DNA of 32,486 nt from Escherichia phage IMM-001: the sequence record MF630922.1; one strand, given 5' to 3'. Of this stretch, positions 56-32,486 are shown in pieces (position 1 is the stretch's first letter; each line of letters opens with the position of its first letter). The position numbers were made by a program, and so were the translations under genes. The notes below the pieces were generated by a model. That model was not told where the DNA came from and did not search any database. It saw only the letters and a list, made by a program, of their open reading frames with translations.

Positions 56-228
56 TTATTGATGTGTTAGTGAATGAATGTTGGAAGAACTACCATACAA
101 GTTGATTTTGATTCTGGCTGAGCCATTTTACGGTATACGTGTAACTTCTGTATATTCATTGTAGTCACAAAAGTAAGTGACCACTAACATACGTTTTTAC
201 GCGAAATATACACGCCATATACAATATA

Positions 229-297
229 ATATCTATATATATCAACCTTTTACTATATTATTATTATTATTATTATATATATGTATACTGTGTATAC
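229..297 (+). repeat. AT-rich ~65-bp repeat, copy A, containing (TTA)6 microsatellite at 258..275
   Basis: Core atatctatatatatcaaccttttact + (TTA)n + tactgtgtata is shared with 27746..27806; lies in the 574-bp ORF-free leader region. Confidence 0.8.
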
Positions 298-340
298 CGC
301 TCATAGATTAAATAGTTGATATATTCCTCTGTGATATTCT

Positions 341-375
341 GACACTTGTCAGAATTGGATGACGCTTGTCAGAAT
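341..375 (+). promoter_or_regulatory. Two tandem operator-like elements gacacttgtcagaat / gacgcttgtcagaat spaced 20 bp; first is a 6-2-6 palindrome CTGACA-CT-TGTCAG
   Basis: Direct reading; intergenic; function unknown. Confidence 0.4.
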
Positions 376-574
376 AAAAAGGCACATATATAGGAAATCA
401 CATCAAAAAACTGTACACAGCGGATACGGCAAGGTTACATCCAGTAATGTCGTGGCTTTGGAGACTGAAAAGTGTATCAATGATAAAATATACTAAAATA
501 TACATTGACCGACACGTAAATCTCTGGCACTGTGGTAATCACTGAAACGCAGTACACAACAACGAGGCATTGAA

Positions 575-4426: not shown

Positions 4427-4502
4427 GTTCTGCTGGCGTAACAGGATAACGCAAAGACCTCCTAAGTCTTAGTTACTGGTTCGAGTCCAGTGCGGAACAC
4501 CA
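4427..4502 (+). tRNA. tRNA-Arg, anticodon CCU (reads AGG), 76 nt with encoded CCA
   Basis: Hand-folded cloverleaf: acceptor gttctgc/gcggaac with one G-U, D stem gcgt/acgc, anticodon stem aagac/gtctt, loop ctCCTaa, variable agtt, T stem actgg/ccagt, T loop ttcgagt, discriminator A. Confidence 0.85.
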
Positions 4503-26828: not shown

Positions 26829-26870
26829 ACTATATCTCATTCTTGAGATTTGTCTTTAGCTATTCGTGCT
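26829..26870 (-). promoter_or_regulatory. Conserved IR promoter-like cassette copy 8, variant (AGCACGAATAGCTAAAG, 22 nt, TATAGT), overlapping the MTase stop
   Basis: Motif family on minus strand upstream of the lipoprotein gene. Confidence 0.5.
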
Positions 26871-27578
26871 GTTTATTCTATTTTTTGCGACATTAAAATA
26901 CTCAGTATCTAGCTCTATACCTATAAATGACCTGTTTGTGTTTACGCATGCTACGCCAGTTGTTCCGCTACCCATGCAGTTATCAAGAACTAAGTCACCC
27001 TCGTCAGTGTATGTTTTTATTAGGTACTCCATCAAGGAAACCGGCTTTTGCGTTGGGTGTAGTGATGATTTCTGCTTGTCGCTAGCCATCTTTATCACAT
27101 CCCTTGGGTATCTCATTGTTGAATCATAAGATAGTGATTCGAAATTCTGATCTCCATAGTTTGTTCCATTGTCGTTCCTCTTTGTTGCTGTTTTTCTTTT
27201 GTGACCCTCTGTCATTTGCGGGTTGTATTTGTAAGGTTTTTTGTAGAAAACAAGTATGTTTTCATGAGCCTTCATCGGAGCTCTCTTGGCATTAAGGTGT
27301 CCGGTTGCATGTGTTTTTTCCCATATCCACTCATGCTTCAACATTTCAAGATTGGAGCACCCGAGTACTTTATCGAATGGTGTTTGCGCCGTAAGTACAA
27401 TTGCACCCTTGCACACCCTCCTGTATTGAGTCCATAGCAAGTCAAGGTCTATAACTGAATCCCACTTGTTTCTGGTTGTTCCGTATGGTAAGTCGCACAA
27501 AATCATGTCAATTGAATTGTCTGGGATTTCTTTCATAAGCTCAAGGCAGTCGCCATTCATTAATTTAATCATTTCCAT
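26856..27578 (-). CDS. orphan DNA methyltransferase, beta-class, DPPY motif (240 aa; may start at second ATG 27572)
   Basis: Motif IV ILCDLPYG near N-terminus and motif I VLDNCMGSGTTG near C-terminus; no adjacent restriction enzyme gene. Confidence 0.8.
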   Translation of the reverse strand: MEMIKLMNGDCLELMKEIPDNSIDMILCDLPYGTTRNKWDSVIDLDLLWTQYRRVCKGAIVLTAQTPFDKVLGCSNLEMLKHEWIWEKTHATGHLNAKRAPMKAHENILVFYKKPYKYNPQMTEGHKRKTATKRNDNGTNYGDQNFESLSYDSTMRYPRDVIKMASDKQKSSLHPTQKPVSLMEYLIKTYTDEGDLVLDNCMGSGTTGVACVNTNRSFIGIELDTEYFNVAKNRINSTNS

Positions 27579-27603
27579 CTCTCATTGCGTTTTTGTTGTG
27601 ATG

Positions 27604-27646
27604 ATTATACATAACCAAGCAAGGGTGTCTTTAGCTATTCGTGCTA
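27604..27646 (-). promoter_or_regulatory. Conserved IR promoter-like cassette copy 9, variant (TAGCACGAATAGCTAAAG, 22 nt, TATAAT)
   Basis: Motif family on minus strand upstream of the MTase gene. Confidence 0.55.
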
Positions 27647-27745
27647 CTGGTTACGCGTAACCGATGTAAATCGATGTATACCATATGCATCCGCTGGAAA
27701 TCGTATACGCATTGTTACGCCTAGTTACGCCATAGTTACATTAAA

Positions 27746-27806
27746 ATATCTATATATATCAACCTTTTACTCTTATTATTATTATTATATATATTACTGT
27801 GTATAT
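27746..27806 (+). repeat. AT-rich repeat, copy B, containing (TTA)5 microsatellite at 27773..27787
   Basis: Shares core with 229..297; lies in the 535-bp ORF-free region between divergent blocks. Confidence 0.8.
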
Positions 27807-28113
27807 CATGTAACCACTGTTCTGGAGTGTTCCGGCTATAATTTTTATATCATGTGATTTTATACAGTATTTCGCGGCACATATACCAATGCACCACCCG
27901 CTAAAATCGGTATACACGGTATACGCATTATTTACATTGAGCTATAGCGGCCCAGCCGGAGCAGTTAAGCGTAACTAATGCCAATGTCTACACGTAATTA
28001 CAAAATTATACGCGTATACTTGATTAATTAATCGGGGATACCAATTAGACGTGGTGACAAGCGTTCTGCATAATTATCACATCGAAAGCAAACAACCATA
28101 GAGAGATAGAGAA

Positions 28114-28308
28114 ATGCCATACTTCATCATTAAAGAGAAAAAAAACGCACTGTTCGGAGATTGCTACTTCGGCGGTGAGGCTGGATATACAATTCACAAA
28201 TCTGAAGCGGACCGATTCGATACCAAGGAAGAGGCCAAGTCTATTCTGACTGGATATTTCACTGAGGAAGATTTGAAAGCTGTTAAGATTGTTAAAATTA
28301 AGGATTGA
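28114..28308 (+). CDS. hypothetical small protein (64 aa)
   Basis: First ORF of rightward block; RBS agagag. Confidence 0.45.
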   Translation: MPYFIIKEKKNALFGDCYFGGEAGYTIHKSEADRFDTKEEAKSILTGYFTEEDLKAVKIVKIKD

Positions 28309-28311
28309 ACC

Positions 28312-29283
28312 ATGACATTTACCGTATACACCAACGACGAACTAACAAACGAATCCTATCACGAAGAGCAGAGCCACATCTCTGGCTCTTCACTGGCTGA
28401 GATTCTCGCCACTTCACCAGCAAAATGGAAATTCAAGCAGCGCGATAACTCAAGCGCAGCACTTAAGTTTGGCACTCTAAGTCACTGCATGATGCTTGAG
28501 CGTGAGGCGTTCGATTCAACCTACATGCGAGCCACTGACTTTGATGAAGTTGAGGGGTTAATCACAAGCCAAACCGCGTTATCGGCAGCACTTAAGAAAG
28601 TTGGAGTTTCTGGTACGTCAGGAAAAGGCTATAACGAGCTAGTAGAGATGATGTACAAGTGCGGTGAGGATTGGCCTGTTAAGTGGCTAATTGAACAGCA
28701 GGAGAGCGCTGAGGCGTTAATTAGTGGCAAGGAGTTGGTTAGTGCGAAAGATTACGATAAGGTAATCGCAATGCGCGAGGTTCTGACCAATATCCCAGCT
28801 TACGATGCAGTTATTAATTCACCAACAGCGCAGAAAGAGCTATCAATCTTTGGTGAGATTCTTGGATGCGGCGTTAAGGTTAGACTTGACCATGTGGATG
28901 TTGTTGATGGCGCGGTTTACATTACTGACTACAAAACCACAGCAGACGCAAGTCCTCGAGGATTTGGTAAGTCGGCTTATGACCATGGATACCTTTGCAA
29001 GATGGCACTCCAGCGCGATTTGTTTGTTAAGGCGTTTAGCGAGAAGCGTAAGGTTGTAGTTCGTCTTCTGGCGCAGGAGAAGACAGAGCCTTATTTGCCA
29101 ATGTGCTACACGCTCACAGATGAGCAGCTTCACATTGGTCGCCTTCAATATATGGAAGCACTTGCCACGTACAAGCAGTGTAAGGAACTTGATGTTTGGC
29201 CTGGATACAGTAATGGGATTACAGAGCAAGATTTAATGATTCCTGAATGGGTAGCAAAACAATACGGAGAGATATTAAAATGA
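28312..29283 (+). CDS. PD-(D/E)xK family nuclease, RecB-like domain (323 aa); likely recombination exonuclease
   Basis: VRLDHVDVVD and YITDYKTT resemble nuclease motifs II and III (hhD / D-Y-K); sits upstream of Erf. Confidence 0.6.
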   Translation: MTFTVYTNDELTNESYHEEQSHISGSSLAEILATSPAKWKFKQRDNSSAALKFGTLSHCMMLEREAFDSTYMRATDFDEVEGLITSQTALSAALKKVGVSGTSGKGYNELVEMMYKCGEDWPVKWLIEQQESAEALISGKELVSAKDYDKVIAMREVLTNIPAYDAVINSPTAQKELSIFGEILGCGVKVRLDHVDVVDGAVYITDYKTTADASPRGFGKSAYDHGYLCKMALQRDLFVKAFSEKRKVVVRLLAQEKTEPYLPMCYTLTDEQLHIGRLQYMEALATYKQCKELDVWPGYSNGITEQDLMIPEWVAKQYGEILK

Positions 29284-29744
29284 ATAAAGATTGCTGGCAG
29301 ACACCATTAGAATTATTTAATCAACTAAATGATAAGTACAATTTCCAGGTTGACGCGTGCGCAAGTCAAGAGAATGCTTTGTGTGAGCATTTTTGGACCG
29401 AAGATGATGACTGTTTGCAGCAGGATTGGGGTGATGAAAATGATTTTGTTTGGTGCAACCCACCATACAGCAACCCATTGCCATTTGTCGAAAAGTGCCA
29501 GGAGTACGGTTACGCTGTTATGCTTTTAAATCAGGACACATCAACGAAATGGGCTAAGATAGTTTTTGAAAAATCCTCAAAGGTAATACTGTTATCAGAT
29601 AGGGTTAGGTTTATAAACCCATCGACGCTCGAGATTGGGAAGTCAAACCCAAAATGCCAGATGATTGTAGTGTTCGATAATAGTGTGGAGCATGGGCCTG
29701 TCATAAGGTGGTGCTCAATAAAAGATATTCACAAAAACATCTAA
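29280..29744 (+). CDS. Dam-like phage N6-adenine DNA methyltransferase (154 aa)
   Basis: N-terminal CWQTP and catalytic NPPY motifs; ATG 29280 overlaps upstream stop. Confidence 0.7.
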   Translation: MNKDCWQTPLELFNQLNDKYNFQVDACASQENALCEHFWTEDDDCLQQDWGDENDFVWCNPPYSNPLPFVEKCQEYGYAVMLLNQDTSTKWAKIVFEKSSKVILLSDRVRFINPSTLEIGKSNPKCQMIVVFDNSVEHGPVIRWCSIKDIHKNI

Positions 29745-32385: not shown

Positions 32386-32431
32386 ATAGTAGCAACTTAC
32401 TCATGATTGAGCATTAGCAAAAAGTGCTATT
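32386..32431 (-). promoter_or_regulatory. Conserved IR promoter-like cassette copy 7 (AATAGCAC-ttt-TTGCTAA, 23 nt, TACTAT)
   Basis: Reverse complement of 32414..32431 equals copy 4 motif; leader gtattcatcgaaacg. Confidence 0.5.
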
Positions 32432-32486
32432 CGTTGGATTTATTGATTGTTGCAGCTATTGCAATGATTCACATGACTATTGCACA

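Follow-up and report, generated by a model that had tools for sequence, protein, structure and literature searches.

A repeat-bearing gap conserved in T1-like phages

What is the function of the 535-bp gap at 27579-28113, which separates two divergent gene blocks of Escherichia phage IMM-001 and carries a cluster of short repeats? A preliminary description had suggested that it may hold divergent promoters and possibly an iteron-type origin. The window, that is, the whole stretch of 32,486 nucleotides that we analysed (record MF630922.1), covers the first 32.5 kb of the genome of an Rtp/T1-like siphophage (Drexlerviridae, Braunvirinae). The flanking genes named in that description were all borne out: a DUF6453 receptor-binding-type protein, a lipoprotein and an N6/N4 methyltransferase on the minus strand, and a recombination block on the plus strand, comprising a 64-aa ORF, a PDDEXK RecE-like exonuclease, Dam, Erf and SSB.

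The gap had matches in 134 phage records, every one of them a T1-like siphophage. Within the Braunvirinae (Rtp, ES, Msk/OzMSK, DTL, IME542 and others) identity was 76-87%, and the Rogunavirinae (Rogue1, AHP24, JK06) matched the left third of the gap only. The genes to its left vary among relatives (methyltransferase, KilA, DNA-binding protein, or none), while the place of the repeat element is constant; the adjacent methyltransferase is a variable cassette that is missing in most relatives retaining the element.

A degenerate 7-mer underlies the GTATAC cluster

All of the repeated strings that had been quoted for this region were found in the sequence, with small corrections of coordinates. 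GTATACGCATT occurs in exactly two copies (27703-27713 and 27919-27929), GGTATACACGGTATACGC lies at 27909-27926 and GTTACGCCTAGTTACGC at 27714-27730. The 12-mer cgtatacgcatt, reported to occur twice, is exact at 27702, but its second copy reads GGTATACGCATT.

We then assessed the frequency of GTATAC against 100 dinucleotide-preserving shuffles. The results showed 15 copies in the window compared with 5.45 +/- 2.41 in the shuffles, none of which reached 15 (largest count 12; 0/100), so the proposed enrichment was confirmed at about 3-fold. More than half of the copies (8/15) lie within two short non-coding regions, five in 27676-28019 and three at 133, 283 and 292. Locally this amounts to 5 per 450 bp compared with 0.11 expected from the remaining window (Poisson 1e-7). 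The three copies on the left are present as had been described, except that the middle one starts at 283 rather than 284; they are not stray matches but part of a complete second copy of the element. In an unbiased screen of k-mers, GTATA, GCGTA, GTAAC, GCGTAAC, ACGCGTA and CGTATAC/GTATAC were enriched relative to the remaining window, with Poisson p values from 1e-7 to 1e-16, and Tandem Repeats Finder independently reported a period-10 array of 3.3 copies at 27706-27739.

The cluster is real, but its unit is not the GTATAC palindrome. Alignment of the window with 17 relatives (18 phages) defined the unit as a degenerate 7-mer centred on TAC(G/A)C, namely [G/T][A/T]TAC[A/G][C/T]. At fixed aligned positions GTATAC, GTTAC, GATAC and TTTAC interchange, and CGC alternates with CAC or CAT. 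We rejected GTATAC as a palindromic site in itself, since relatives carry non-palindromic variants at the same positions. In the left array, repeat columns were 0.95 identical compared with 0.85 for the spacer (15 Braunvirinae, Mann-Whitney p = 7e-4), and in the right module 0.91 compared with 0.78 for the spacers (p = 5e-6). These swaps, together with the conservation of the repeat columns, suggest the footprint of a putative degenerate binding site. Sixteen copies of the 7-mer lie in 27650-28018, arranged as arrays phased at 9-11 bp plus two palindromes. The best 400-bp window holds 15 copies, compared with 2.49 per kb over the whole window, and the homologous site in Rtp is the genome-wide maximum of 7-mer density.

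Layout of the element

The element in the gap, which we call copy R, consists of four forward repeats, an AT core and two reverse repeats, with further arrays and terminal palindromes outside. The repeats on the two sides of the core are in opposite orientation and point towards it. Its parts are as follows.

27649-27662: perfect 14-bp palindrome GGTTACGCGTAACC made of two inverted 7-mers, outer left boundary
27664-27680, minus strand: reverse repeats ATGTAAA and ATGTATA, 10 bp apart
27688-27701: conserved block CATCCGCTGGAAAT, in relatives a palindrome TCCGCGGA(AA)
27703-27741, plus strand: left array TATACGC, GTTACGC, GTTACGC, GTTACAT, starting at 27704, 27714, 27724 and 27735
27742-27798: AT-rich core of 57 bp, candidate DNA unwinding element
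27799-27814, minus strand: reverse repeats GTGTATA and ATGTAAC, 9 bp apart, directly right of the core
27815-27908: conserved spacer specific to copy R, with TATAAT (27837-27842) and TTTATACAGTAT
27909-27937, plus strand: right array TATACAC, TATACGC, TTTACAT, starting at 27911, 27920 and 27931, kept in all Braunvirinae
27940-28018: distal right module, with the palindrome AGCTATAGC (27940-27948) and a reverse GCGTAAC (27969-27975)
28007-28018: palindrome TATACGCGTATA, outer right boundary

The position of the left boundary palindrome is kept in all relatives, as GTATACRCGTAAC or GGTTACRCGTAAC. The reverse repeats at 27664-27680 sit within a direct repeat, CGATGTAA/CGATGTAT, which is near-invariant among relatives. 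At the place equivalent to the block at 27688-27701, TLS carries ATCCGGCG in both its copies, and CCGCGGA is enriched in copy L of Rtp (4 copies). The left array, spaced at 10, 10 and 11 bp, is directed at the AT core from one side, and the pair at 27799-27814, invariant in Braunvirinae, is directed back at it from the other. In the copy R spacer the TATAAT is conserved and is without a recognisable -35, and we found no conserved hairpin at 27815-27908; the sole terminator-like hit there (27822-27835) is not kept in relatives. The distal right module also holds a conserved CTACACG..ATTAC segment. This module, as the motif string TTACAT.GAGCTATAGCTGGGCT...GCGTAAC...ACGCGTA, is shared by copy L of Rtp, ES, IME542 and OzMSK.

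The AT-rich core

The core at 27742-27798 is about 90% A+T (88% over the best 60-bp stretch). It contains a 26-mer common with copy L (27746-27771), a (TTA)5/TA tract (27773-27795) and a perfect consensus for IHF, TATCAACCTTTTA, at 27757-27769; the IHF consensus is confined to Braunvirinae. The stretch 27737-27818 was 96-99% identical in eight relatives, compared with only 67-82% (nucleotide) for the neighbouring recE. A pure unwinding element requires A+T richness only, and an almost invariant sequence of 80 bp therefore suggests that something sequence-specific acts on the core.

A second copy of the element

A homologous second element, copy L, lies at about 100-560, 27.5 kb from copy R. 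Its parts follow the same order as in copy R: palindrome, phased repeats, AT core, ACTGTGTATA.

~100-560: copy L, with the palindrome-like GTATACGTGTAAC (133-145), the counterpart of the left boundary palindrome of copy R, and TGTATA/TGTAGT 10 bp apart (150-165)
Copy L, inner parts: forward repeats at 196 and 207, the 26-mer at 229-254, IHF consensus at 240-252
Copy L, right part: (TAT)7 at 256-276, reverse repeats at 281-296 (281/290; the same pair as at 27799-27814), further repeats at 434-520

The exact 26-mer ATATCTATATATATCAACCTTTTACT occurs at 229 and 27746, two occurrences compared with 0 expected. No DNA in the window is less stable than the core of copy L (90% A+T). Copy L itself was found conserved across 92 phage records, and its counterparts in seven relatives could be aligned with it. 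Where genomes are complete, the copies lie in the two large intergenic regions between divergent genes, which in Rtp are rtp75/rtp1 and rtp45/rtp46. The arrays of copies L and R have apparently been exchanged between lineages.

We extended the comparison to T1 and TLS, which gave no match to the element in blastn searches. They nevertheless share the instability of the two cores. When stretches of 60 and of 100 bp were ranked by stability, the two cores took the two lowest places in the window, Rtp, T1 and TLS alike; they deviate from the mean by more than 5 sd, stand far clear of the stretch in third place and are 87-92% A+T over 60 bp. TLS, a member of another subfamily, served as a forward test of this core instability, and the result held. 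In T1, copy L has the layout of copies R and L of the window, and both regions carry AAATTACGCC twice 10 bp apart, GATTACG twice, CGTGTAACAG three times, and GTTACGC. The repeat of TLS differs, consisting of CGTGAAC/TGGAAC and AACAA in both copies. When all four genomes were scanned generically for clustered short repeats, the two elements ranked highest among the non-coding clusters; the other high scorers were coding repeats.

Predicted promoters at the outer edges

Sequence and conservation both support the suggestion of divergent promoters, with one predicted promoter on each outer edge of the repeat field.

27604-27646, minus strand: P_left, -35 AAGACA (27631-27626) and -10 TATAAT (27609-27604), 10/12 in the promoter scan
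28045-28113, plus strand: P_right, -35 TTAGAC (28045-28050), N18, -10 CATAAT (28069-28074)

P_left carries a copy of a 21-nt repeat of the T1 family, whose consensus aaATAGCACnnnTTGnTAAAA has been published for TLS, T1, Rtp and Rogue1 (PMC11447400). The copy reads AGTAGCACGAATAGCTAAAGA on the minus strand (~27625-27646) with two mismatches to the consensus; the conserved GTCTTTAGCTATTCGTGCT (27626-27645) is this minus-strand copy and provides the -35 region of P_left. GTCTTTAGC was invariant in 18 phages, with the -10 at a distance of 16-17 nt in both flank types. Members of this repeat family match aaATAGCACnnnTTGnTAAAA, are oriented with transcription and stand ~70-76 nt upstream of a start codon; the present copy conforms to this pattern, with 68 nt between its start and the start codon of the methyltransferase (27578). 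Other copies of the 21-nt repeat lie at 1226, 2273, 3587, 7246, 15596, 26851, 29742 and 32414, of which the one at 26851-26870 shares an exact 20-mer with the copy in P_left. The 21-nt repeat is a different motif from the 7-mer: it stands in single copies at many promoters, whereas the 7-mers are confined to two loci. It explains the left edge only, and not the GTATAC/GTTACGC cluster.

At the other edge, P_right is followed by a conserved leader with a ribosome-binding site, up to the ATG at 28114, and relatives carry TTGGAC-N18-TATAGT at the same place. Its -10 and leader belong to a 47-nt family with copies at 1262, 2312, 28067 and 29781. The repeat field thus lies between two outward-facing predicted promoters.

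A candidate origin and its machinery

The preliminary description had named an iteron-type origin as a possibility. Phased repeats in opposed orientation, the least stable DNA, conservation, and the presence of the corresponding initiator class in relatives together make this the best-supported reading, but the element remains a candidate, with transcriptional control as its rival. On these grounds we consider it an evenly balanced proposition that the two copies are twin replication origins, oriR at 27649-28018 and oriL at about 100-560, bracketed by promoters. Two other types of origin did not fit. An oriC/DnaA-type origin was ruled out, because an exact DnaA box (TTWTNCACA) is absent from both elements and GATC is absent in 27560-28120 and 1-600. 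A lambda-type origin would have four iterons of ~19 bp in the initiator gene, and here the 7-mers are non-coding. We also discarded cumulative GC skew as an origin signal: it follows gene orientation and is therefore confounded, with its minimum at copy L in Rtp and T1.

Genes for a suitable replication system are encoded in relatives, outside the window. Rtp67 (T1 gp9) is a DUF3987 protein, and DUF3987 proteins have been described as SF6 replicative helicases with a C-terminal winged helix (PMC4889955). The best structural matches of its AlphaFold model (pLDDT 89) were MCM proteins, revealing an MCM-like fold, and the model has a C-terminal winged helix at 451-521 in the order helix-strand-helix-helix-strand-strand. 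Sequence searches with the helicase against solved structures gave no significant hit, so that only the fold search was informative. Rtp51 (T1 gp24) is a primase with a primase-helicase zinc ribbon, annotated in the T1 record as similar to the P4 alpha replication protein. All relatives examined also have a gene for a Cro-like HTH protein (T1 gp23 / Rtp52), which diverges most strongly in its HTH segment.

The following mechanism could operate at each copy. A phage-encoded origin-binding protein would occupy the 7-bp [G/T][A/T]TAC[A/G][C/T] repeats, whose spacing of 9-11 bp would place them on one face of the helix, directed at the core from both sides. IHF would bend the DNA at TATCAACCTTTTA, the core of ~90% A+T would melt, and a helicase would be loaded on either side. 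The P4-alpha-like primase (T1 gp24 / Rtp51) may then prime synthesis by host polymerase. The outer promoters, probably read by host sigma-70 polymerase, would drive the methyltransferase, lipoprotein and receptor-binding genes leftward and the recombination operon rightward.

The leading candidate for the binding protein is the MCM-like DUF3987 helicase (T1 gp9 / Rtp67), which may read the repeats with the winged helix at its C-terminus; the alternative is that the Cro-like HTH protein (T1 gp23 / Rtp52) does so. T1, Rtp and TLS all infect E. coli, yet the repeat of TLS differs, which makes a phage-encoded binding protein likelier than a host protein. Compared with Rtp, the winged helix of the helicase is 62% identical in TLS and 47.5% in T1, yet it is TLS that carries the different repeat. 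Across the three genomes (Rtp, T1 and TLS), neither the winged helix of the helicase nor the Cro-like HTH cleanly tracks the type of repeat.

Two published analyses of T1-like genomes found no origin (PMC11447400, PMC7718038), and in the literature that we searched we found no mapped T1-family origin, no map of transcription starts and no description of the element. The promoter repeat at the left edge was already known; the element of repeats and core, and its duplication, are new relative to that literature.

Alternative explanations

Against an origin counts that an origin needs no second copy, and that both copies lie exactly at the two large divergent promoter regions. A transcriptional control element would explain this placement at least as naturally. 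The repeats would then be operators for a phage regulator, such as the Cro-like T1 gp23 / Rtp52, which together with IHF would switch the early divergent operons, and the AT core would hold back-to-back overlapping promoters with UP elements. Such a hub would suit the position of the two copies at the head of the two large divergent gene blocks, and the near-invariant core fits the constraints of promoters, UP elements and IHF better than those of a compositional unwinding element. A Cro-like candidate regulator is available in all relatives examined. Both cores also contain weak sigma-70 matches: on the plus strand TTTACT-N16/18-TATTAT or TATATT, and on the minus strand TACACA-N17-AATAAT. However, these core matches reach 9/12 only and were no commoner than in shuffled sequence (6 vs 4.3; 9 vs 3.6), and in the two copies they stand at distances from the conserved flanks that differ by 8 bp. 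The recognisable promoters stand outside the repeat field, and the promoter motif of the family is the 21-nt repeat, found at ~20 promoters, whereas the 7-mers occur at two loci with ~10-16 copies each. Such a reading would also leave the helicase/primase system without another candidate origin. Overall, we regard a control hub in place of an origin as possible though unlikely. The two readings are not exclusive, because transcription beside an origin often activates it.

A further proposal, which we consider rather improbable, is that the two elements form a functionally coupled pair, with one phage protein bridging both repeat fields. Bridging as in P4 ori/crr or the handcuffing of plasmid iterons would fold the ~46-kb genome into two loops and link the onset of replication with the switching of the four early divergent operons, and gene conversion would homogenise the copies. 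Such coupling would explain the existence of two copies, their placement at promoter hubs and the almost invariant 80-bp core.

It is more improbable still that the elements serve packaging or recombination, copy L being or adjoining pac and copy R a secondary pac-like site or a recombination hot spot. IHF assists at lambda cos and might do the same here. The records of T1, Rtp and OzMSK begin just left of copy L, the T1 record annotates a 2.8-kb terminal repeat from position 1, and the apparent exchange of arrays between lineages would suit recombination. However, record starts are conventions or come from low-resolution maps, the terminase genes are 5-8 kb distant, and a complete second copy in mid-genome would lead to aberrant series of packaging events. 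Nor are pac sites known to have repeat arrays that converge on a core which melts easily.

Finally, a gene for a small protein or a non-coding RNA is a very remote explanation of the conservation: some depositors have annotated ORFs here (for example, long-form rtp46 and OzMSK_041), the core is extremely conserved, and the gap, described as having no ORFs, does contain a mechanical 52-aa GTG ORF on the minus strand (27759-27917), but that ORF is kept in only 6 of the 18 aligned phages, no conserved reading frame was found across them, and the commonest plus-strand frame is not open in the window and is disrupted where an (ATT)n tract varies in length by 1 nt. For RNA, Rfam at gathering thresholds gave tRNA-Arg at 4427 alone over the whole window, 27500-28200 gave no match at E <= 1, and folding energies on the two strands were ordinary (z = -1.0 and -0.1).

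Relation to known systems

The candidate origins most resemble, in several respects, those of the SaPI islands of S. aureus and the PICI islands of E. coli, in which two sets of short repeats flank an AT-rich region proposed to melt; the same arrangement was found in copies R and L. In those islands at least two repeats stand on each side in opposite orientation, as do the four forward and two reverse repeats of copy R and the repeats at 196/207 and 281/290 of copy L. SaPI repeats are 5-6 nt long, compared with 7 nt here. The island initiator is a self-loading AAA+ helicase (SF3 or MCM-like SF6) whose C-terminal winged helix reads the repeats, with a separate or fused primase, and this class of helicase and primase is encoded in relatives of the phage (Rtp67, Rtp51). 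There are also differences. The island origin adjoins the rep gene, whereas the Rtp DUF3987 helicase gene (42193-43776) is separated from copy L by at least 2.5 kb and from copy R by ~14 kb. The elements described here are two homologous copies 27.5 kb apart, in a virulent phage and not an island; they have extra arrays and palindromes, extend over ~400 bp, and have a near-invariant core, with an IHF consensus in Braunvirinae.

The satellite phage P4 requires both ori and crr and uses octamer iterons. The likeness lies in two separated cis elements with short repeats in both orientations. The P4 alpha protein, however, is a single polypeptide with primase, SF3 helicase and DNA-binding functions, whereas T1-like phages encode the primase and the SF6-type helicase in separate genes, and the repeat sequence differs.

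Classical iteron origins (lambda ori, pSC101/R6K) likewise have direct repeats beside an AT-rich region, and those of pSC101 and R6K carry an IHF site. The classical iterons measure 17-22 bp at a spacing of about two helical turns and are accompanied by DnaA boxes, and those of lambda lie inside the initiator gene; here the 7-mers are one helical turn apart and non-coding, and there is no DnaA box. The operator region of Mu (O1-O3) has many short degenerate repressor sites in both orientations, an IHF site and the divergent promoters Pe/Pc. It resembles the elements in its short degenerate sites spread over a few hundred bp, its IHF site and its divergent promoters, but it is a lysogeny switch that occurs once per genome without an extreme AT core, whereas here two copies are found in a virulent phage. 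Judged from this comparison of sequences, the element is a plausible candidate, with about equal weight for and against, for a new case among origins that combine iterons with an unwinding element.

Significance

T1 belongs to the seven classic T phages; phages related to it commonly contaminate laboratories and fermentations and are also candidates for therapy. The present analysis provides a testable candidate for the origin of the T1 family, two elements of ~400 bp that each combine defined repeats with an IHF site and a core proposed to melt, and links these candidate origins to the MCM-like helicase and P4-like primase of the family. If the reading as origins is true, the elements could be used for phage-dependent replicons and as diagnostic targets conserved above any nearby gene, and they would mark sites to avoid or exploit in engineering T1-like phages. 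They would also offer a compact bacterial system for the loading of MCM-type helicases, and the origin design of the SaPI/PICI islands would extend to a family of virulent phages.

A promoter repeat distributed across the window

The leftward promoter at the left edge of copy R (the repeat-and-AT-core element at 27649-28018, a candidate replication origin or regulatory hub) includes the published 21-nt promoter-associated repeat of the T1 family. We located this repeat, the 47-nt family of -10/leader sequences and a direct repeat in the window as follows:

1226, 2273, 3587, 7246, 15596 and 29742, plus strand: copies of the 21-nt repeat
26851, 27626 and 32414, minus strand: copies of the 21-nt repeat
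1262, 2312, 28067 and 29781: copies of the 47-nt -10/leader family
26-60 and 32435-32469: 80% direct repeat TGGTGTTTTTGATTGTTGCAGAATTTGCAATTATT

The 21-nt repeats at 2273 and 29742 lie about 39 nt upstream of a 47-nt -10/leader copy. The 21-nt repeat contains the inverted repeat TAGCA-N5-TGCTA, which suggests a dimeric regulator working at many promoters. The 32435-32469 copy of TGGTGTTTTTGATTGTTGCAGAATTTGCAATTATT adjoins the minus-oriented 21-nt repeat at 32414-32431, and this direct repeat is probably a leader common to two leftward promoters.

We also inspected P_right, the rightward promoter heading the recombination operon (-35 TTAGAC, 28045-28050; -10 CATAAT, 28069-28074). The 21-nt repeat was not present there (28022-28050), and the alignment revealed that the relatives have a different inverted repeat, GATTGGCAAAACCAATTGGAC, at the equivalent position relative to the -35. 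The P_right operon may be under a regulator other than that of the 21-nt repeat promoters.

Methyltransferase genes and a tRNA gene

The window encodes two methyltransferases and a tRNA:

26856-27578: N6/N4 methyltransferase ORF
29247-29744: Dam-type methyltransferase ORF, overlapping the end of the recE-like gene
4427-4502: tRNA-Arg (CCU) gene

An exact 20-mer of the promoter repeat, TGTCTTTAGCTATTCGTGCT, occurs at 26851-26870 and 27626-27645, on both sides of the N6/N4 methyltransferase ORF. In ES, the closest relative, this gene is missing and the lipoprotein gene directly adjoins the element; in further relatives the spot is occupied by KilA or DNA-binding genes. Given these three observations, the N6/N4 methyltransferase looks like an inserted cassette whose promoter was duplicated with the insertion. 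The Dam-type ORF, the second enzyme, has a separate promoter repeat (29742) and leader (29781) after it.

Two copies of the element and possible exchange between them

Sequence comparison demonstrated that window 100-560 is a complete second element (copy L), which has an exact 26-mer in common with copy R. Both run from the palindrome to the phased repeats, then to the AT core and on to the reverse repeats. Copy L separates the leftward early gene block from the rightward one, and no DNA in the window is less stable. Four further features were recorded:

337-354: palindrome TTCTGACACTTGTCAGAA, right of the copy L core
365-375: second CTTGTCAGAAT, after that palindrome
27688-27701: GC-rich block CATCCGCGGAAAAT, including palindrome TCCGCGGA, with the outer palindrome on one side and the phased array on the other
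27815-27908: copy-R-specific block with invariant GTGTTCCGGYTATAATTTT and TTTATACAGTAT

The GC-rich block holds this position in each of the two copies and in different subfamilies (27688-27701 of the window and copy L of Rtp; in TLS, as ATCCGGCG, at 28781-28792 and 153-164); we know of no protein that binds it. Within 27815-27908, GTGTTCCGGYTATAATTTT is a perfect -10 without a -35, and the block is accounted for by neither the origin nor the promoter reading.

The 337-354/365-375 pair occurred only in the copy-L variant common to the window, T145P1, 12469II and TR1, and was not present in the Rtp/ES/IME542 variant. Because the pair is restricted to one variant, copy L is mosaic right of its core. 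The array of Rtp copy L (Rtp 150-230, ..CCAAGTTACGCCATAGTTACACTATAATATC) was closer to window copy R (27703-27760, ..CCTAGTTACGCCATAGTTACATTAAAATATC) than that of Rtp copy R was, which suggests exchange or gene conversion between copies L and R across lineages.
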